64,000 nt of DNA, taken from positions 5,721 through 69,720 of the forward strand of contig JBHLLP010000012.1 of the NCBI GenBank assembly GCA_048885525.1. The letters run 5' to 3'. This DNA is from Candidatus Hermodarchaeota archaeon. GTDB lineage: Archaea > Asgardarchaeota > Lokiarchaeia > Sigyniarchaeales > SOKP01. This document shows positions 13,084 through 35,152 of the stretch, in pieces; position 1 is the first letter of the stretch; the number at the start of each line of letters is the position of its first letter. The notes under the pieces are model-generated. The model searched no databases and had not been told where the DNA came from. It saw nothing but the letters and a program-made list of their open reading frames with translations. Made by a program: the position numbers and the translations under genes.

Positions 13084-13677
13084 ATGATTATAGATCACTG
13101 TGATAAAACACTCAGCATAAAAATAGTGTATTTTGGACCCGCATATTCGGGTAAGACTACTTCCATTAAATCATTATTCTCCCATTTTGGAAAGGGTGAT
13201 GCGCTGCAAAGCATCGAAAGTACAGTTAAAAGAACCTTATTTTTTGATTATGGTACAATTACTTTCCAAAATGAAGAATGGAGGTTGAAGCTTCACATTT
13301 ATACTACAACTGGTCAGGATTTCTATTTAATAACCAGACCAATTACTTTACGAGCAGTTGATGGCATTATACTTGTGCTGGACTCTCAAGAGGATGTATA
13401 TGAACGTAACCTTACATCATGGAATGAACTTCTATCATATTTTAGAGATTGTATCGAAGATATTCCTATAATAATTGCATTTAACAAACAGGATTTACCA
13501 GATAAATTTAATCCAAGAAATTTCTTAACAGAGATTGATTTTGATAAATATAAGAATATGGATTCACGATATACTATTGCAGTTAGTGGAGAGGGAATAC
13601 TTGATTGTTTTGAGGATATATTAAGATTGGTATTAAGGAAGTTTTGCAAACATCGATTAATTTCAACTATAAACTGA
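13084..13677 (+). CDS. MglA-family small GTPase
   Basis: 197 aa. KIVYFGPAYSGKTTS (MglA: KIVYYGPGLCGKTT), RTLFFDY, IYTTTGQDFY (MglA: LYTVPGQVFY), VDGIILVLDSQ, FNKQDLP. Comparison is to the Myxococcus MglA sequence as I recall it. Confidence 0.8.
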   Translation: MIIDHCDKTLSIKIVYFGPAYSGKTTSIKSLFSHFGKGDALQSIESTVKRTLFFDYGTITFQNEEWRLKLHIYTTTGQDFYLITRPITLRAVDGIILVLDSQEDVYERNLTSWNELLSYFRDCIEDIPIIIAFNKQDLPDKFNPRNFLTEIDFDKYKNMDSRYTIAVSGEGILDCFEDILRLVLRKFCKHRLISTIN

Positions 13678-18596: not shown

Positions 18597-19550
18597 TTAT
18601 TTTACATATTCTGGATAATCTCCCAGAAGGGGTGCGAAAAGTCTTTCGTATTCTACTGCCATACAATGAATACCCGCAGCTTTAGTAGTTTTTTTGATTT
18701 CATCTATAAATGGTTTGAAATATTCGATATTAATTTTATCGATAGCCGCATATTTAGCCGGTTTGTTTCCTTTGTTATCTTTCTCTGCTTTCTTAAGGGA
18801 TTTAAGAAGTTCCTTTGGTACCGAGACTCCTGGAATAAAATTATCGAAATACCATGCAATCCCATGCGATTTTAAGGGAAAGACGCCCAACAAAACAGGA
18901 ACATTAAATTGCTCAAGTTCTTTGAGAAATTCTTTTGCTTGGTCTATATCAAATGCAGTCTGTGTTTGGATGAAATCAACACCTTTTTCTACTTTACGGC
19001 CTACTTTGAGGATCTCGGGTTCGCGTGGGTTACTATTAGGGTTTGCGACACATCCAAAATTCATCTCTATTTTACCACCTTCAAGTTCATTACCTTCATA
19101 ATCAGTACCTTCATCAATCATTATAGAGAGCATTTCAGCAAACTGAGTACTATCGATATCATATACTGGACGGCCTTTTTTATGATCTCCAAGTGCTGTA
19201 TGGTCTCCTGTAAGTGTAAGAATATTTTTTAATCCAAGAACGGCTCCCGCGATGACATCACCAAAGAGAGCAACGCGGTTTCTGTCTCTTACGGTTACTT
19301 GCCACACAGCTTCAATGTTTGCTTTTTCTTGAACAAGATAACTTGGTACCATTGAAGACATATAGGCATCACCTTGGGGACCATCTGTTACGTTGGCAGC
19401 TACTATCCTACCTGTTTTTTTCATCTCTTTAGCAGAATGAATAATTTCATCAAGGCTTAAGATTTTTTTAGGCTCAAGTTCTCCAGTAAACACAAAATGG
19501 CCGGCCTCAATTGCTTTACATAAATTGCTATATGCTGTTCTTTTTGCCAT
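18597..19550 (-). CDS. metF: Methylenetetrahydrofolate reductase, acetogen/MetFV type
   Basis: 317 aa. FTGELEPKK, ANVTDGPQG, TVRDRNRVAL, NILTLTGDH. The start abuts the metV stop with no spacer. Confidence 0.8.
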   Translation of the reverse strand: MAKRTAYSNLCKAIEAGHFVFTGELEPKKILSLDEIIHSAKEMKKTGRIVAANVTDGPQGDAYMSSMVPSYLVQEKANIEAVWQVTVRDRNRVALFGDVIAGAVLGLKNILTLTGDHTALGDHKKGRPVYDIDSTQFAEMLSIMIDEGTDYEGNELEGGKIEMNFGCVANPNSNPREPEILKVGRKVEKGVDFIQTQTAFDIDQAKEFLKELEQFNVPVLLGVFPLKSHGIAWYFDNFIPGVSVPKELLKSLKKAEKDNKGNKPAKYAAIDKINIEYFKPFIDEIKKTTKAAGIHCMAVEYERLFAPLLGDYPEYVK

Positions 19551-20246
19551 TTATTTGCTCTCCTCCTTTTTTTCTTCAATATTAGTATAATCTTTGTAAA
19601 TATTGTTATATCCTGGGCTTGTTGAGGTTCTAAAATCTCTTGGACCTCTATATTTTTTGAAAAGATCGATTCTACCAAATTCTTTTAACCGTTGCCAAAT
19701 ACTTACCCATGCACAAGGAATTGTATATCCACCAACTTCACACATTCCTTCAACCATTCCTCCACAAGGACCGTTACTCAAATGTTTAGCACATCCTGCT
19801 CGAGGACATATCCCACCAGTCTCACCAATTATACAATCTCCACAAGATTCACAGAATTCGATATAATTATTTTGACTGTTGTCTTGAGCTCCACCGAACA
19901 TACTGTTTTGAGCAGGGTATGTTAAAATCTTCGGAAGAACTCTGTTCATCATAACAACACCAAGACCGCACGCTAGAGTAACTATAGCATCAAAATCCTC
20001 TTCATAAGGACGACATGTCGTGGCAGCAATCCTATCATCGCATTGTCGTAGAACTGTTATTGCTTTCCATTTTAATTCTTTACCTTCAGTTCTAGCTTTT
20101 AATTCTAAAAGTTGTCCTAGCACCTTTGCTTCATTAAGCGATCGAGGAGGTTGGCAACAACCGTCGCAACCAGTAATTAAAATCTTATTGTATGGCTTTA
20201 TTAGCTCATATATTTCGCTTATATCTTTTTGTTGCGTAATTATCAT
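19551..20246 (-). CDS. metV: MetV, Cys-rich MTHFR small subunit (MTHFR C-terminal-like domain)
   Basis: 231 aa. ITGCDGCCQP, LACGLG, FCESCGDCIIGETGGICPRAGCAKHLSNGPCGG, as in Moorella-type MetV. Confidence 0.7.
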   Translation of the reverse strand: MIITQQKDISEIYELIKPYNKILITGCDGCCQPPRSLNEAKVLGQLLELKARTEGKELKWKAITVLRQCDDRIAATTCRPYEEDFDAIVTLACGLGVVMMNRVLPKILTYPAQNSMFGGAQDNSQNNYIEFCESCGDCIIGETGGICPRAGCAKHLSNGPCGGMVEGMCEVGGYTIPCAWVSIWQRLKEFGRIDLFKKYRGPRDFRTSTSPGYNNIYKDYTNIEEKKEESK

Positions 20247-20341
20247 ATTACTAAACTCCTTTTTTTACATTTTTGTATTAATTTTTACTTTTAAATTTAA
20301 TTTATTAATAGCTTTATTAGTGTTTAAAAAATTCACACATC

Positions 20342-21223
20342 TTAGGTTGTTAATTTCTGAATTAACTTATTCGGTTTAACACTTCTGTTCTTCAAACTGA
20401 GATCTTGAAGATCAACTCCTAAAGCGACCGCAATAATTTCGGGTAAATATAGGATAGGAATATCAAGTTCCTTTCCCGTCTTTCGAGAAATTAATTTTTC
20501 CTTCCTATCATATTGAGTCACACAAGCGGGGCATACCGCAATTAGGGCATCAACATCTTGCTCAAGTTCACATAATTCCGTCATCTTATCCTCAACAAGT
20601 TTTTCGCCTATTTCTTCTTGTAATCGGGCGCAAAAACCGCAGCATTCTAATTTATTTGCAAACTCAATCGTTTTAGCACCAAGTGCTTGAAGAATATTAT
20701 CGATTTTTTCAGGTTTCTCGGGATGATCAAACTGCATAATTTTACTTGGTCTAACAAGATGGCAGCCATAATGCACAGCGAGAGTTAAGTCGTCAAGGGG
20801 TTTAACTGTTAAATCTTTAAGTTTTTCTATCCATTCTGGCTGACTAAACAGTTCTACAAAATGATACACTTTAGTTTTTCCAGTATAGTGATAGTTAATC
20901 TTCTTTAATATCCTATCTATTTTTTCCAAATATTCTTCATCTTCTTCTAATAACACACTTACCGTTTTTAATGTTTCATAGCAACCTGAACAGATGGTAA
21001 GGATATCCAAACCCATTTTTTCAGCAATGGCTAGATTTCGTGCTCCTAAAGTGACCCATGTATCAATATTTAATGATTGAAGAGATACAGGTTCAGGGCA
21101 ACAACTTACTCCTTCCATTTCTTTCAATTTCATATCTAAAATGCTTGCGACATCTCGAAATGCTTTCTCTAAATGAGGCATCTTTAAAGGTATTGTACAT
21201 CCTAAATATAATGCAAGTTCCAT
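20342..21223 (-). CDS. hdrB: Heterodisulfide reductase subunit B (two CCG domains)
   Basis: 293 aa. YLGCTIP, GVSCCPEP, ICSGC, HYGCH, LECCGF, VCPAC. Confidence 0.8.
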   Translation of the reverse strand: MELALYLGCTIPLKMPHLEKAFRDVASILDMKLKEMEGVSCCPEPVSLQSLNIDTWVTLGARNLAIAEKMGLDILTICSGCYETLKTVSVLLEEDEEYLEKIDRILKKINYHYTGKTKVYHFVELFSQPEWIEKLKDLTVKPLDDLTLAVHYGCHLVRPSKIMQFDHPEKPEKIDNILQALGAKTIEFANKLECCGFCARLQEEIGEKLVEDKMTELCELEQDVDALIAVCPACVTQYDRKEKLISRKTGKELDIPILYLPEIIAVALGVDLQDLSLKNRSVKPNKLIQKLTT

Positions 21224-21225
21224 TT

Positions 21226-21756
21226 TTAATCATCCTCCTTTTTTTTTGCGAGATCTCCTAATCCCGTTTCTTCTATTATATATCTAATTTCATCTAGATT
21301 AGGGGGTATAAGTTGGGGTAACCCCATCCTACTTCTTCTTCTATCAATATTATCTTTTAAGCCACCAGTATAAGGTACTACATATCCATTATCATAGATT
21401 GTAACAACAGTTCCTGAATATTCTTTGGGAATTTTTCCCAATTTAACTGCCATGTTACGAAGAAGAGCAAGAATAAAAGAGTAATCTACATTCTTTGGAC
21501 ATCTTTCAGTGCATCTATGGCATAAAGAACACGTCCAAATTGCTTGACTTGAAAGAACTTCATCTTTTAAACCTAAAAGACAGGATGCAACAACTCTATG
21601 TGGTTGCATATCAACATATTCCGTTACAGTACAGCCTGAGCTACATACACCACATTGGATACAGTTTAGAAGTGATTTTGCACCAACTTTTTGACTAATT
21701 TCATAACGAAAATTATGATCTAAATTTTTAGCATCTTTTTTCATCATTTCTGACAT
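21226..21756 (-). CDS. hdrC: Heterodisulfide reductase subunit C (2x[4Fe-4S])
   Basis: 176 aa. CIQCGVCSSGC and CSLCHRCTERCP. 2-nt spacers to both hdrA and hdrB. Confidence 0.8.
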   Translation of the reverse strand: MSEMMKKDAKNLDHNFRYEISQKVGAKSLLNCIQCGVCSSGCTVTEYVDMQPHRVVASCLLGLKDEVLSSQAIWTCSLCHRCTERCPKNVDYSFILALLRNMAVKLGKIPKEYSGTVVTIYDNGYVVPYTGGLKDNIDRRRSRMGLPQLIPPNLDEIRYIIEETGLGDLAKKKEDD

Positions 21757-21758
21757 TT

Positions 21759-24700
21759 TTAAGCAGCCTCCTTAGCTTTTTGTTTTTTTTCAATTTTATC
21801 ACCTGTTTTAGGAAGTGGTCCTAATTCTTTAATTTGATTAACAAACTCAGTGATAACTTGAGAAAATCGTTTTCCTTCTGAAGCGCTTATCCATTCAAGA
21901 TGATATCTATCGGAATTGATGCCAACACTTTCAAGTATATCTTTAAGCTCATTGTAACGTTGTAACATGTCATAATTTCCTTCTAAATAGTGACAGTCAC
22001 CGATATGACATCCTCCAACAAACACACCGTCAGCACCTTCCAAAAATGCTTGTAAAATAAAGCTTTTGGGTATTCTGCCAGTACACATCACTCGTATTGG
22101 TCGAATATTAGTTGGATATTGAAAGCGGCTTACACCACATGTGTCAGCACCAGCATAACTACACCAATTACATAAGAAAGTTACGATTCTAGGCCTTTCA
22201 TCTAAATATTCACCCTTGACAGCTTCACGGATCATAGGATAAATTTGATTATCTGCGAAATGACTCATTGTTATCGCTCCTGCGGGACATGCAGCCGAAC
22301 AATCGCCACAACCTTTACATAAAAGAGGATTAGTTTCTGAAACTAAAACATTTTTATCAAAGTTAACTCCTATAGCTCCAAAGTTGCAAACTTCTTCACA
22401 TTTTTGACATGCAATACATAGTGCTGGATCAACAAGCGATACGAGCGGTTCATTTTCCACTTCTCCTGAGATTAATGGAATTAAAGCATGAGCTGCCGCA
22501 CCTCTACCTTGTGAGATTGAATCTGCAATTCCTTTGGGACCATGGCAAGTTCCTGCTAGGTATATACCATCAGTTGCAAAATCTACTGGTCTTAATTTAA
22601 TATGAGCTTCTAAGAAAAAACCATTTTGATCTCGAGCACATTTTATCATCTCACCTAATTTTTGAGTATCATGAGGTATTAAGGGTGTAGATAAAACTAC
22701 TTTGTCAGTCTCAATAGTAAGGTTAGTTTGAGTTAGAATATCTTTAACCATTACATTCAATTTACCATTTTTAACATCAACAGTAGGATATTCGTTAAAA
22801 CGTATATAGTTTACATTCTCACGTGCTTCCCAGTAAAAAGGTTCTTCATTGGTCCCTACTCGGATATCTCTATATAAAACATAAATAGTTGAGTGTGGAT
22901 ATGTTTCTCTTACGTATAAAGCATGTCTGATTGACTCTGAACAACAAATTAATGAACAATATGTGACCCCATTTCCACCTTCTGGTTGTCTAGAACCCAC
23001 ACAATGGATAAAAACAAGAGTTTCTCCATCTTTTAGTTCATTATTCCTAAGTTTTTCAGATAATTCAAGTTGTGTCATAACATTATTATTTTCACCATAA
23101 TGAAACCATCCAATGGGTTTATACTCATAAGCACCAGTAGCAGCTATAATTGTACCAATATTCAAACTAATATCTTTCCCTTCAAAATTGTTTGTAACTC
23201 TGACTTTAAAATCTCCAATAGATCCTTTCACATCAGTAACTTCAGAATTTAAATAAATAGTAACATTCTTATGTTCATTGAATTCTTTTAACTCTGCTTC
23301 TATAAACTCCTTTGAGTCAATTCTATCGAAATTGATTTTATAGATTGAGTTTAATTGCCCTCCTAGTTTATCATCTTTTTCTATTAAATGCACTTTAAAG
23401 CCCTTATTGGCGATTTCCAGAGCTGCACTCATTCCAGCTATCCCTCCACCTATTACCATTGCTTCGGGAATAACATTACCTTTAATTTTTAACTCTGCTT
23501 TTTGTGCTGCTACACGAGCAACACCCATTCTGATAAGGTCCTTTGCTTTATCGGTTGCTTTAGGGTTATCATTCATATGTACCCATGAATCTAACTCTCT
23601 AATACTTACGAAATTAAACAAATATTCATTTAAACCTGCTTCCCTAATGGTCTTTTGGAATAATGGTTCGTGAGTTCTTGGTGTACATGCTGCAACTACA
23701 ACCCTATTTAAGTTTAATTCTTCTATCTTTTCTTTTATAATGTCTTGGGTTAATTGTGAGCAGCTATACTTATTTTCCATTGAATAAACTACATTTGGAA
23801 GTGTTTTTGTATAATCAACTAATTTAGGAACATCCATATATCCTGCAATATTAACACCACAGCGACATATGAATACACCAATTCGAGGTTGATCCTTTGG
23901 ATTTATGGGTTTAAGAGGAGGAAGATCTACTTTCGTTTCTTCGGCACTTAATGGAACAGCATGAGTTGCTGCTAAAGCTGCTGCTCCACCCGCCTTTGCC
24001 ACCGAATTTGCAATATCATCAGGAGATTGGCATGAACCAGTCACATATATTCCTTCTCTTGTAGAACATAGATCTTCTATAGAATCTTTGGTTTTGAAAA
24101 ACCCGAAATCATTTTGTTCAATTCCTAGTATCTTCGCTAATTGTTCAGTGTCTTTTCGGGGAGTAACAGCATTTGCAAGGACAACTAGGTCAAATTCACT
24201 AACTTCAACCTCACCGGTATCAAGGTTTGCATGCTTAACATATAGATTATGATTTTCTGGATTTTCACGGATATCTCCAGGAATTCCTCTATAATACAAT
24301 ATATTATACTCCTCTTTAGCTCTTTCAATAAACTCCTCTTGATTTTTTCCTATAACTCTAGTATCGTTGAAGAAGATCGTTACATTTGTATCGGGAGCAT
24401 GCTCTCTCGTAACTACTCCTTCTTTAGTTTGATACATACAACAAAATTTAGAGCAATAAGGACATAAATCTATGTTTCTCGAACCTACACAACTAATAAA
24501 ACCTATATTATACGCATGCTCCTTATCTGAGGGTCTTAATATTTCACCTTCAGTAGGACCAGATGCACTTAGTAATCGTTCATACTGCATCGCAGTAATA
24601 ACATTTGGATATTCCCCATAATGATAACGATCAAGAACACTAGGGTCTAGTTGATCATATCCAGTAGCACAAATGATAGATGCTACGTTATACTCAACAA

Positions 24701-25241
24701 TTTCATCTTTCATATCCCAATTAATAGCTCCTGCCTCACATTCTTTTTCACAGAGTTTGCAAGCGTTTTTCGTAAAAAATAAGCATCTTTCTGCATCAAT
24801 GACTGCTTTTCTTGGTACTGCTTGCGGAAATGGAATATAAATAGCTGTACGATAACCCATACCTTCTTCAAATTCTGAAGGTATTTTTTTCATAGGACAT
24901 TTCTCCATACATTGTCCACAACCAGTGCACACATCCCAATCAACATATCTAGACTTTTTAAGTACTTTTATGTTAAAATTTCCAGCTTCACCTGAAATTT
25001 CCTGTATTTCTGAATATGCTATGAGTTCTACATTAGGATGCCTAGACACTTCTACCATTTTAGGAGCCAGAATACATATACTGCAGTCTAATGTTGGAAA
25101 GGTTTTATCGAGTTGTGCCATTCGGCCTCCAACAGAAGGAGTTTTTTCAACAAGAATTACTTTATATCCTTGTTCAGCTAAAGTTAATGCTGCTTCGATT
25201 CCACTAATACCTGCACCGATAATTAATATTTTACTATTCAT
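21759..25241 (-). CDS. hdrA: Tandem HdrA-HdrA-MvhD fusion protein (flavin/Fe-S electron-bifurcation-type subunit)
   Basis: 1160 aa. First FAD module GAGISG (res 8-13) with CTGCGQCMEKCP and CVGSR...CPYCSKFCC. HdrA N-terminal-type FICRCGVNI (res 458-466). Second FAD module GGGIAG (598-603) with CVGSR...YCSLICC. 2x[4Fe-4S] CIACQKCEEVC and CKGCGDCSAACP. MvhD domain (about 1017-1140) with FLCNWCSYAGADTCG and GGCHIGDCH. Confidence 0.85.
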   Translation of the reverse strand: MNSKILIIGAGISGIEAALTLAEQGYKVILVEKTPSVGGRMAQLDKTFPTLDCSICILAPKMVEVSRHPNVELIAYSEIQEISGEAGNFNIKVLKKSRYVDWDVCTGCGQCMEKCPMKKIPSEFEEGMGYRTAIYIPFPQAVPRKAVIDAERCLFFTKNACKLCEKECEAGAINWDMKDEIVEYNVASIICATGYDQLDPSVLDRYHYGEYPNVITAMQYERLLSASGPTEGEILRPSDKEHAYNIGFISCVGSRNIDLCPYCSKFCCMYQTKEGVVTREHAPDTNVTIFFNDTRVIGKNQEEFIERAKEEYNILYYRGIPGDIRENPENHNLYVKHANLDTGEVEVSEFDLVVLANAVTPRKDTEQLAKILGIEQNDFGFFKTKDSIEDLCSTREGIYVTGSCQSPDDIANSVAKAGGAAALAATHAVPLSAEETKVDLPPLKPINPKDQPRIGVFICRCGVNIAGYMDVPKLVDYTKTLPNVVYSMENKYSCSQLTQDIIKEKIEELNLNRVVVAACTPRTHEPLFQKTIREAGLNEYLFNFVSIRELDSWVHMNDNPKATDKAKDLIRMGVARVAAQKAELKIKGNVIPEAMVIGGGIAGMSAALEIANKGFKVHLIEKDDKLGGQLNSIYKINFDRIDSKEFIEAELKEFNEHKNVTIYLNSEVTDVKGSIGDFKVRVTNNFEGKDISLNIGTIIAATGAYEYKPIGWFHYGENNNVMTQLELSEKLRNNELKDGETLVFIHCVGSRQPEGGNGVTYCSLICCSESIRHALYVRETYPHSTIYVLYRDIRVGTNEEPFYWEARENVNYIRFNEYPTVDVKNGKLNVMVKDILTQTNLTIETDKVVLSTPLIPHDTQKLGEMIKCARDQNGFFLEAHIKLRPVDFATDGIYLAGTCHGPKGIADSISQGRGAAAHALIPLISGEVENEPLVSLVDPALCIACQKCEEVCNFGAIGVNFDKNVLVSETNPLLCKGCGDCSAACPAGAITMSHFADNQIYPMIREAVKGEYLDERPRIVTFLCNWCSYAGADTCGVSRFQYPTNIRPIRVMCTGRIPKSFILQAFLEGADGVFVGGCHIGDCHYLEGNYDMLQRYNELKDILESVGINSDRYHLEWISASEGKRFSQVITEFVNQIKELGPLPKTGDKIEKKQKAKEAA

Positions 25242-32177: not shown

Positions 32178-33101
32178 TTATATTAATTGTTCTAAAATCT
32201 TAACCAAACTATCAAGAAAAACTGGGAACTTTTCAAAGAATTTTTCTTTATATTGGTCTTTAAGTACTGCTGAAATGAAAAACGTGTCATTTTTAATTTT
32301 CTTTTTTAGTAGATATGAAAAGAGCTTACCTTCAGTTGAGGTAAAATCAAAATTTCCTTCATATTTTTCCTCTTCCATCCGTTTAAGTAAAAAGAGATGC
32401 TCTTTAATGGATTCTAACAACTCAACATATACTTCGGCTTCTATATCGCTGTAATATTCAGAAACAATAATTCCATTCCGATCGAATAAAATAAGAGCTT
32501 GACTTTGAAATATTTCTAAATAATATTCTAATAATTCTGAAAGCTCAAAGAATTTTTTATCAAAAACAGATAAGCCATATGAGACTAACTGAACGATCGA
32601 AATGATATCATAAATTGATGATTGTTGAAATAAAATATTGAAATTCGGATAATCATTCAAAATTTTTTTTCTTAATTTTTCAATATTAGCTAAAATTTTA
32701 ACATCAGCTTTTAAATCTGGATCATATTTATGAAAAGTGATAATAATGGGGACATTCATTTCGCTTTTTTCAAAAAAACTTAGAATTGCATTTAAATATT
32801 CAAGTGAGTCATCAAATCGATCTGGATCTTGAATATCGATAACATAGATAAGTAAATCAGTAGCATCAAAATACACATCTTGATAATTGACGTAAATCTC
32901 TCTATAAGTTTCTTGTCCTCCCATATCCCAGAATACAGTATTACTTTTTAAAAAATTCATCTTATGGTATTCTACTCTAATAGTAGGTTTAAGTTGGACA
33001 ATATCCTTTTCAAAATCATATTTTTTATCTAAGGCTGTTAAGATTGAAGTCTTTCCGGCGTTATCAAGTCCTGAAATTATACACTTTAATAGACCTTCCA
33101 A
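32178..33101 (-). CDS. Rag/Gtr-type small GTPase with C-terminal roadblock domain
   Basis: 307 aa, TTG start. G1 GLDNAGKTS, G3 WDMGGQETY, G4 HKYD (His, as in RagA HKMD), SSIYD (RagA TSIWD). C-terminal ALILFDRNGIIVSEYY parallels RagA EVLLFERATFLVISHY. Comparison is to RagA as I recall it. Confidence 0.75.
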   Translation of the reverse strand: MEGLLKCIISGLDNAGKTSILTALDKKYDFEKDIVQLKPTIRVEYHKMNFLKSNTVFWDMGGQETYREIYVNYQDVYFDATDLLIYVIDIQDPDRFDDSLEYLNAILSFFEKSEMNVPIIITFHKYDPDLKADVKILANIEKLRKKILNDYPNFNILFQQSSIYDIISIVQLVSYGLSVFDKKFFELSELLEYYLEIFQSQALILFDRNGIIVSEYYSDIEAEVYVELLESIKEHLFLLKRMEEEKYEGNFDFTSTEGKLFSYLLKKKIKNDTFFISAVLKDQYKEKFFEKFPVFLDSLVKILEQLI

Positions 33102-33415
33102 TTGTTTTCAGCTCTTATTTATTTTAGCAAATAGTTGAATTTAATAAAATAATAGATTCATTTAAATTTAAAGTTCTGGGAATAGCAAAAAGAGTTTTTC
33201 AAATTTAACCTTGAGATGACTTAAGATATTGTTTGCTATAATATCAAGGAAACATTCAAATATTACTCTTATGTTTATAATTTCAATTTCTTGATGGAAA
33301 TTACTAAAAGAATAATGATTTTAGAGTCATTTCGATGACATTTATATGATATTTATATTTTTTAAACCAGATCTATTGATTTTACTTAAGAATATAATTC
33401 ATAAAAGAGGATGAT

Positions 33416-33652
33416 GTGTTTTTGATAGAAGTTGAAAATAAATTTTTAGAATTTTTAGAGTATCAAATTAGTCTAAAAGAAAATACTTATAAAACAATGA
33501 AAAAGATTCCAGTTTTCTCTGAGCAGGTGAAACAGTTAGATAAATCTGTTATTGACCTTACAGAAAAATTTGATAGAATTCGTCTTCGGGATAAATATCG
33601 GATAATCATAACAGAATTGGATAATTTAATAAAAAGCGCTAAATTAAAATAA
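33416..33652 (+). CDS. Hypothetical small helical protein
   Basis: 78-aa GTG-start ORF, helical/coiled-coil composition. Divergent from the Rag-like gene. Confidence 0.35.
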   Translation: MFLIEVENKFLEFLEYQISLKENTYKTMKKIPVFSEQVKQLDKSVIDLTEKFDRIRLRDKYRIIITELDNLIKSAKLK

Positions 33653-34108: not shown

Positions 34109-35152
34109 TTATTTCTTAAATCGCTCACATTTGTTTAAATTTTTAATTTGCTTTAATACTGATTTAGGTAAAGTATTTTGATTTCCCTCTTTTAACGCAA
34201 GTATTTTAGTTATGATAAGAAGTTCATTTTGATCAAATCCATCAATATTAGTCCATCCTGTCGATTCTCCCGCTTCAATACATATAAAAAATGGGGCTTT
34301 TTTGCATTTCAAGCATCTGCTGTCCATACATTTCTTACATATTTTAGGATAATAATACACATTCCCATTTTTAAGGAAAATTGAAAATTGACCAAATTCT
34401 TTGTTATTAACTCTAAGCCAATTAGTAGATTCAAATTGAACGTCTAACTTTAAATTTAAAATAAACTTAACTAATTGTTCTGTATTTATAGTTTGAGTGA
34501 GATTTGCATTGTGAGATTCAGGTTCATAATAATCATTACATTCATCACTTATATTAGAATGAGAGAAGAGAAGGTTTAAGGGAATAAAGTCGATTATGTA
34601 AACATTATCTATTTCTTTACATTTAGATTTTTTAAAAAAAAATGAACAAATTTGGTATAATATGTTTGAGGGTTTAGATATTTCATTAATTTCAATATTG
34701 TTTGATTTTATTAATGAGTTAAAATTCTCGTTATTAAAATACCTATTACTAATCTCAGCTTTTGTGGATTGCTCAAGAATTATGCAAAATATTATAGTAA
34801 TTGATGGTAAACGGGTCTGGATTTCATTAAAATATTGTAGAATCTGATCTATTTTTGTTTCAGATATGAATATTATTATAGCTTCAGCCCCATTGTAAAA
34901 TACTGTACGCAAATAAGATCTCTGTTGTCTACAATCAATATTCCACAAAAGAAATTCAAATCTTTCATATTTTTTAAATAAATAATCAATTTTACTAATA
35001 TTTACTCCAATGTTTACCTTATTTTCTAAAGGTAAGGAATTTGAACTTAATTTCTTTTGAAACTCATCTTTATAATTTTCCATCCCTCCAAGGATGCAGA
35101 TTTTTTTTTTAATGAGGGGATTACTTAAAAGTGGAGTTTCTAATGAGCTCAT
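34109..35152 (-). CDS. Degenerate Ras-like (pseudo-GTPase) domain protein with Cys-rich C-terminal domain
   Basis: 347 aa. KICILGGMENYKDEF sits where G1 is expected (GxxxxGK[ST] lost). LLWNIDCRQQ replaces DxxGQ. AEAIIIFISETK is strand-like as in Ras. There is no NKxD. The C-terminal half carries CKKCMDSRCLKCKKAPFFIC. Confidence 0.45.
   Translation of the reverse strand: MSSLETPLLSNPLIKKKICILGGMENYKDEFQKKLSSNSLPLENKVNIGVNISKIDYLFKKYERFEFLLWNIDCRQQRSYLRTVFYNGAEAIIIFISETKIDQILQYFNEIQTRLPSITIIFCIILEQSTKAEISNRYFNNENFNSLIKSNNIEINEISKPSNILYQICSFFFKKSKCKEIDNVYIIDFIPLNLLFSHSNISDECNDYYEPESHNANLTQTINTEQLVKFILNLKLDVQFESTNWLRVNNKEFGQFSIFLKNGNVYYYPKICKKCMDSRCLKCKKAPFFICIEAGESTGWTNIDGFDQNELLIITKILALKEGNQNTLPKSVLKQIKNLNKCERFKK

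Follow-up and report, generated by a model that had tools for sequence, protein, structure and literature searches.

A probable Rag-like small GTPase with a C-terminal roadblock domain encoded in an Asgard archaeal genome

Eukaryotic Rag GTPases control TORC1 at the lysosome. They are obligate heterodimers of a RagA/B-type and a RagC/D-type subunit, which dock on the Ragulator/EGO roadblock scaffold and are regulated, upstream of TOR, by the longin GTPase-activating proteins (GAPs) GATOR1 and folliculin. GTPases of the Arf family have a single domain of ~180 aa with an NKxD motif at G4, and carry an amphipathic helix at the N terminus, which typically bears a myristoylated Gly2 and is set free when GTP binds. 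Here, we analyzed a stretch of 64,000 nucleotides (the window; contig JBHLLP010000012.1, positions 5,721 to 69,720, G+C content 29.6%) from a genome deposited as Candidatus Hermodarchaeota archaeon (GCA_048885525.1). One gene in the window is very probably that of a Rag-like (RagA/Gtr1-like) small GTPase of an Asgard archaeon, in which a G domain is followed by a roadblock domain. A preliminary description, drawn up from the letters of the window alone, had proposed a Rag/Gtr-type GTPase in an archaeal context. The context is indeed archaeal and, more specifically, Asgard, a group from which proteins of this kind have been described before (PMC4917890, PMC10933270; PDB 8YL2, 8ZLA and 9M28).

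Roadblock domains fused to Rag-like GTPases were reported in Lokiarchaeum in 2016 (summarized in PMC4917890), and the GTPase-roadblock architecture, an insert in switch II and predicted Rag-like dimers have been described in Asgard archaea (PMC10933270). Asgard archaea possess Rag/Gtr GTPases (PMC12290439), and Rag-family GTPases are listed among the Asgard eukaryotic signature proteins (bioRxiv 10.1101/2020.10.19.343400). A published tree keeps the Asgard proteins called 'Arf-like' or 'Arfl' out of the Arf clade and puts them close to Rag (PMC11914678). The closest solved relatives are LokiRagO (8YL2, a homo tetrameric RagA-like protein in complex with GTP) and LokiRagM (8ZLA with GDP, 9M28 with GTP), whose crystal structures were released in 2025-2026. 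Our literature search found no paper describing 8YL2 or the other LokiRag structures, and we therefore cite the PDB titles alone.

The gene begins with a TTG codon (Table 1). This start is sound, because the aligned start position is common to 76 orthologs (ATG in 71, TTG in four and GTG in one). The preliminary description gave the open reading frame (ORF) and its 307-residue product correctly and left the minus strand unstated. NCBI holds an identical protein (P0001) under the name 'MAG: ADP-ribosylation factor-like protein [Candidatus Hodarchaeota archaeon]', where MAG stands for metagenome-assembled genome.

Table 1. Positions in the window of the Rag-like gene, its parts and the other features discussed
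Feature	Position	Strand	Remarks
Rag-like GTPase gene	32178..33101	minus	307 codons + stop; TTG start 33099-33101, stop 32178-32180
G domain, residues 1-178	32568..33101	minus	AlphaFold2 model: Ras-like fold, six strands and five helices; Pfam Arf, Gtr1_RagA, SRPRB
G1/P-loop GLDNAGKTS, residues 11-19	33045..33071	minus	read from sequence
Switch I threonine T40 (in KPTIRVE)	32982..32984	minus	aligned to RagA ATIDVE
G3/switch II WDMGGQ, residues 58-63, catalytic-position Gln63	32913..32930	minus	WDMGGQETY spans 58-66
G4 HKYD, residues 124-127	32721..32732	minus	His replaces the usual Asn, as in Rag/Gtr; FHKYD = 123-127
G5 SSIYD, residues 161-165	32607..32621	minus	aligned to RagA TSIWD
Linker and C-terminal roadblock domain, residues 179-307	32181..32567	minus	AlphaFold2 model, Foldseek
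Intergenic region, presumed promoter	33102..33415		314 bp 5' of the Rag-like gene, shared with the divergent 78-aa ORF
78-aa ORF	33416-33652	plus	divergent from the Rag-like gene
347-aa degenerate GTPase-like protein	34109-35152	minus	its end lies 3 bp upstream of YjbQ
Multi-pass membrane protein P0271	1-1088	minus	368 aa in full; runs off the window start
Two small GTPases, Ras/Roc type	13084-13677; 25805/25883-26491	plus, plus	197 aa; ~202-228 aa; family HMMs
MTHFR (MetF) cluster	18597-25241	minus	MetV-like protein, heterodisulfide reductase-like CCG and 4Fe-4S subunits

We compared the product with sequence profiles and with the chains of the PDB. Pfam Gtr1_RagA matched with 67.8 bits (E 1.2e-18), far over its curated cut-off of 22 bits, from residue 7 to 222 and over profile positions 2-218 of 232, so that it covers the whole G domain and extends into the C-terminal domain. 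The Arf family was also above threshold, with residues 5-138 aligned to profile positions 15-137 of 174 at 81.1 bits, and SRPRB reached 36 bits. Because its match ends at residue 138, the Arf profile reaches just two thirds of the way through the G domain. Among PDB chains, the LokiRagO chain 8yl2_A was matched with an E value of 1e-31 by the single sequence and of 1e-37, over residues 6-300, by the orthogroup profile; the corresponding values for the LokiRagM chain 8zla_A were 6e-19 and 1e-22. RagA (E 1.3e-13) and Arl3 tie at ~54 bits in these searches. Chance does not explain similarities of the size found for Gtr1_RagA, RagA and 8yl2. A profile of the wider family (105 members) ranked 8yl2 (302 bits, E 4e-89) and 8zla (205 bits, E 1e-59) before RagA (135 bits, E 5e-38, chain residues 6-281) and Gtr1 (113-124 bits, E 7e-35); RagC/Gtr2 received 87-95 bits, and Arl3 92 bits (E 5e-25) over its G domain only. 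All 105 members match Gtr1_RagA (best E 6e-32), and all 105 match Arf as well (best E 8e-24).

These figures bear on the suggestion that the protein is an Arf-family (Arf-like/ArfR) GTPase with an unrelated C-terminal extension, working as an Arf-like membrane-inserting switch. The name given by NCBI implies as much, Arf (PF00025) is the top Pfam score, Arl3 has the identical G1 motif GLDNAGKT, and many Arl/Arf chains appear among the single-sequence PDB matches (E 1e-14 to 1e-8). The Arf profile is, however, confined to part of the G domain, and the features expected of an Arf protein are missing. The N terminus reads MEGLLKCIISG and strand b1 starts at residue 4, which leaves only ~3 residues before it (sequence and AlphaFold2 model) and no Gly2, so the amphipathic or myristoylated helix is absent. 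G4 is HKYD rather than NKxD, and the segment of switch II and helix a2 has the length found in Rag proteins, four residues more than in Arl3, which needs a four-residue gap in the alignment; the HMMER alignments require no gap here against LokiRagO and a gap of one residue against RagA. With 307 aa, the protein also carries an extra domain, and this C-terminal domain aligns in sequence to those of RagA and LokiRagO. Since the published tree also leaves the Asgard 'Arfl' proteins outside the Arf clade (PMC11914678), and the Arf-family fold matches described below cover the G domain only, we consider an Arf-type switch improbable and return to the Rag-like assignment.

The alignment to human RagA (6ces_A, 313 aa) pairs WDMGGQ with WDCGGQ, HKYD with HKMD and SSIYD with TSIWD. 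In the C-terminal part, HMMER pairs ALILFDRNGIIVSEYY, at residues 202-217, with EVLLFERATFLVISHY of human RagA.

We modeled the protein with AlphaFold2 (AF2). A first model, built on 38 close homologs (73-88% identity), was poor, with a predicted local distance difference test (pLDDT) of 62, and was superseded by one built on a 105-sequence alignment that includes 50%-cluster representatives (pLDDT 89.8, predicted template modeling score 0.82). The model begins at residue 2, so that its numbering is that of the protein minus one. In protein numbering, the C-terminal elements are helix 183-198, strands 200-206 and 212-217, helix 222-244, strands 252-257, 260-269 and 272-281, and helix 282-306. 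This a-b-b-a-b-b-b-a order is that of a roadblock domain, and mean pLDDT per 10-residue block is 80-96 in this region. The top Foldseek match in the PDB was 8yl2, which superposes over its full length with a template modeling score (TM) of 0.80-0.85, a root-mean-square deviation (rmsd) of 2.8-3.0 A and 28-29% identity. About 30 chains of RagA, RagC, Gtr1 and Gtr2 also superpose in full length (TM 0.60-0.77, E 1e-20 to 1e-11), whereas Arl3, Arl2 and CIN4 cover the G domain only (query-normalized TM 0.44-0.49). Thus the roadblock domain follows the G domain directly, and the two are predicted to be arranged as in Rag proteins.

Small GTPases and roadblock folds are also combined in the bacterial MglA/MglB system, and one could read the protein as a fused module of this type: a polarity GTPase whose roadblock domain serves as an intramolecular GAP or guanine nucleotide exchange factor and not as a Rag-type dimerization platform. 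The C-terminal domain of the first AF2 model did match the MglB roadblock homodimers 3t1s and 6hjm (E 2-3e-4), and bacterial roadblock proteins are regulators of small GTPases (PMC9481161, PMC11016934). But these matches are much weaker than those to Rag and Gtr chains, which extend over both domains, and the family profile likewise reaches RagA and Gtr1 through both. The full-length superpositions suggest that the roadblock domain is not placed on the switch face. In MglA/MglB the two parts are separate proteins, while here they are fused. An MglA/MglB-type module is therefore very unlikely, and the model speaks for a Rag-like protein.

Most of the claims of the preliminary description on the gene itself can be followed through these results. 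Its Rag/Gtr-type identity is supported by Pfam, the RagA alignment, the AF2 fold and the full-length superposition on Rag/Gtr chains, and all of its proposed checks that were run favored this identity. The motifs GLDNAGKTS, WDMGGQETY, HKYD and SSIYD are all present in the product; those quoted there for RagA are borne out by the alignment to the human protein, and the reading of HKYD as G4 agrees with its alignment to RagA HKMD. The proposed search with Pfam Gtr1_RagA gave the 67.8 bits reported above. AF2 predicts with high confidence the roadblock fold expected for the C-terminal part (residues ~183-306), and the parallel drawn to the start of the RagA roadblock domain reappears in the alignment of ALIVFDRNGI.IISEYY to EVLLFERATFLVISHYQ. 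Of the outcomes that it named as speaking against a Rag protein, a higher score for Arf than for Gtr1_RagA was obtained, but the roadblock fold and the alignment at G4 stand.

The nucleotide-binding motifs are strongly conserved. Across 74 orthologs, the majority residue has a mean frequency of 0.99 in the G1 columns, and the P-loop with helix a1 is the most conserved segment (0.99). Next comes the stretch that comprises G5, helix a5 and linker (0.90-0.97), and in the roadblock domain strand b2 and helix a2 also rank high (0.87-0.89). HKxD is found at G4 in 75 of 75 orthologs. In 95 full-length representatives of the wider family, the P-loop retains GK[TS] in 93, the switch I threonine is present in all 95 and the G3 glutamine in 91, while G4 opens with H in 69 of them, with S in 17 and with N in eight. 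We asked on this basis how probable a pseudo-GTPase is, in which catalysis has been lost and the fold alone serves as a scaffold. Nothing specific to the protein favors it, although the degenerate GTPase-like gene 1 kb away shows that such decay occurs in the lineage. With five intact and almost invariant G motifs, and with solved relatives that carry GTP or GDP according to their PDB titles, a dead scaffold is extremely unlikely, and an active Rag-like GTPase is the better description.

The protein is a separate, strongly conserved paralog of the crystallized LokiRagO and LokiRagM. It shares with LokiRagO the two-domain architecture, the HKxD motif of G4 and a long switch II, but the two are only 28-29% identical and the solved LokiRagO chain has ~40 extra N-terminal residues. 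LokiRagM belongs to the same family and likewise joins a C-terminal domain to its G domain; unlike the window protein, it has 385 aa with a C-terminal extension and is monomeric by its PDB title. Its match in Foldseek was significant, with a TM of 0.40-0.44 and an rmsd of 16 A for 8zla and 9m28, and this poor superposition indicates that the domains are arranged differently. The switch II insert that sets Asgard GTPase-roadblock proteins apart from single-domain GTPases is present. Eukaryotic RagA/B-Gtr1 and RagC/D-Gtr2 proteins (PF04670) resemble the window protein in length (~310 aa), in HKxD at G4, [ST]SI[WY]D at G5 and the RagA-length switch II, in a roadblock domain that can be aligned in sequence and in the fold over the full length, and neither they nor the window protein are lipid-anchored. 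They differ in overall sequence (~20% identity) and in the P-loop (GKSGSGKT instead of GLDNAGKT), and no RagC/Gtr2-type gene is adjacent here.

Several observations weigh against the assignment as a Rag-like GTPase. For the single protein, Arf outscores Gtr1_RagA in Pfam, and the P-loop is of the Arf/Arl/Sar type and not of the RagA type. A partner Rag paralog is absent from the window, and the gene neighborhood, conserved in almost all of 80 loci, gives no hint of function. The two solved relatives differ from each other, one being a homotetramer and the other a monomer (PDB titles). Strict membership of the Rag clade would rest on the ranking of profiles and predicted folds together with published trees.

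By analogy with eukaryotic Rag/Gtr structures and with the Asgard relatives crystallized with GTP or GDP (PDB titles), the protein would cycle as a GTP/GDP switch. Its roadblock domain may be the platform by which it associates with itself or binds other proteins of the roadblock or longin type, as eukaryotic Rag dimers do on Ragulator, and the near-invariant segment of helix a5 and linker may couple the nucleotide state to this platform. Because the solved relatives are a tetramer and a monomer, dimerization of the window protein is something that we infer. Gly2, a C-terminal Cys, an N-terminal amphipathic helix and a transmembrane segment are all absent (sequence and AF2 model), and association with a membrane would thus need a partner.

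To describe the family, we searched 1.84 billion cluster representatives with HMMER, which returned 2291 clusters at E<=1e-3 and 616 at E<=1e-10. Most of the matched clusters have 300-345 aa, and some have 390-510 aa with an N-terminal extension. The orthogroup itself was found in 137 GTDB species genomes, nearly all titled Promethearchaeota (the Asgard phylum) or Promethearchaeia (its Lokiarchaeia-equivalent class); the best 80 of the 137 share about 57-88% identity with the window protein.

We compared gene order at 80 orthologous loci, probed with the proteins encoded around the window gene. Each locus has one copy of the Rag-like ortholog, and almost all retain a collinear block that runs from SHMT through DUF7121, a TrmI-like methyltransferase, a tRNA-binding protein, a 140-aa protein, the degenerate GTPase (where present) and YjbQ/UPF0047 to the 78-aa ORF (on the opposite strand), the Rag-like gene, a class I (Trp/Tyr-type) aminoacyl-tRNA synthetase, an AsnC regulator, the thermosome and PEPCK. 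A homolog of 51% identity lies in an unrelated gene context. We rejected synteny as a source of functional linkage, because the block from SHMT to PEPCK is collinear clade-wide and, where a whole block is kept, the neighbors of a gene carry no specific information on its function.

The same comparison exposed some questionable genome labels. Contig DATKTW010000161.1, titled 'Candidatus Nanopelagicaceae bacterium', carries the full Asgard block with a Rag-like gene of 60% identity, and has most likely been binned into a bacterial MAG by mistake (L082). In one series of deposits, MAGs titled Hodarchaeota, Hermodarchaeota, Thorarchaeota or Odinarchaeota (L009, L021, L022, L024, L029, L038, L046, L068 and others) match Promethearchaeia-titled MAGs in gene order and in identity levels. 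The phylum labels of this series look unreliable, including that of the record with the protein identical to ours.

We scanned all six-frame ORFs of the 64-kb window with hidden Markov models (HMMs) of the family G domain and C-terminal domain and found no second Rag-like C-terminal domain, which confirms the earlier remark that no second Rag paralog is adjacent. Nor did the listed gene products of the four loci with gene calls (L002-L005) include that of a second Rag-like gene. No Pfam match to Robl_LC7 or longin was obtained among 25 window proteins, and neither the window nor the related loci examined showed a link to Ragulator/EGO, GATOR, folliculin or TOR.

The ORF that shares the presumed promoter region with the Rag-like gene is intact, as an ORF of 68-86 aa, in 72 of the 80 loci, with the motif E..N.FLE.L.YQI..K...KIP.F, and is missing beside the 51%-identical homolog in its other context. 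It has no significant match in Pfam or NCBIfam, and its Pfam matches are far below threshold (E>=0.003). One could go further and propose that the orthogroup, with its single copy per locus in a constant block of core genes, is the housekeeping Rag-like switch of the Lokiarchaeia (Promethearchaeia). It would act as a homo-oligomer together with the 78-aa protein, a small helical protein that would be a minimal adaptor analogous to Ragulator, and would serve a pre-eukaryotic form of nutrient or growth-state signaling, not membrane traffic. We give this specific scenario a low probability.

The degenerate GTPase-like gene is not in an operon with the Rag-like gene, as the latter has its own upstream region of 314 bp. 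Its product falls short of the Pfam Roc cut-off (24.6 versus 27 bits). With a profile of 17 sequences, all 24 PDB matches at E<=1 are Ran or Rab (best E 0.002), over profile positions 10-183, so that the N-terminal ~180 residues are weakly Rab/Ran-like. The P-loop has a degenerate sequence (GGxENYKDEFQ), WNIDC stands at G3 and an NKxD motif is lacking, while the C-terminal half has four invariant cysteines (C272, C275, C280 and C291). The gene is restricted to the sub-clade in which the Rag-like ortholog is at least 71% identical (41 of the 80 loci), and is absent where the ortholog is 62% identical or less. We considered the product as a partner of the Rag-like protein and rejected it: the G-domain HMM does not match (E 5.9), hhalign gives a probability of 6%, and there is no roadblock domain. 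Judged by its sequence, it is probably a Rab/Ran-like pseudo-GTPase and not a Rag paralog. The preliminary description was thus right to see a degenerate GTPase-like gene here, but what resemblance there is points weakly to Rab/Ran instead of Rag.

The preliminary description had also pointed to a roadblock-like domain at the end of the membrane protein P0271, to which it gave positions 1-1077. Pfam, NCBIfam and the PDB returned no match, with the single sequence or with a profile, and hhalign found none to the Rag C-terminal domain; the roadblock-like domain is therefore unsupported by these searches, which were of sequence only and left the fold untested. In the soluble C-terminal ~120 residues, the order assigned by eye is strand-strand-helix-strand-strand-strand-helix-helix, nearer to a longin than to a roadblock order. 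We found 19 homologs of P0271, and those with an organism name are from Asgard MAGs. Beside the two Ras/Roc-type GTPases of the window, Pfam revealed no roadblock or longin gene among the ORFs scanned. The MTHFR cluster also encodes a 1160-aa HdrA-like flavoprotein fused to an MvhD/FlpD domain.

NCBI names the orthologs 'ADP-ribosylation factor-like protein' or '50S ribosome-binding GTPase', and the evidence favors Rag-like as the better name. Because the connection between Asgard archaea and Rag proteins is already in the literature and in crystal structures, the gene adds a data point and is not a discovery: Rag-like GTPases with a roadblock domain are known in Asgard archaea, and our results support the placement of this protein as an uncharacterized further member. 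The modest additions made here are the unusually strong conservation of this paralog, its constant housekeeping neighborhood and the absence of an adjacent partner paralog. Such a widely conserved protein is a sensible target for biochemistry in cultured Lokiarchaeia, and Asgard relatives of Rag bear on the origin of eukaryotic signaling and endomembrane regulation.

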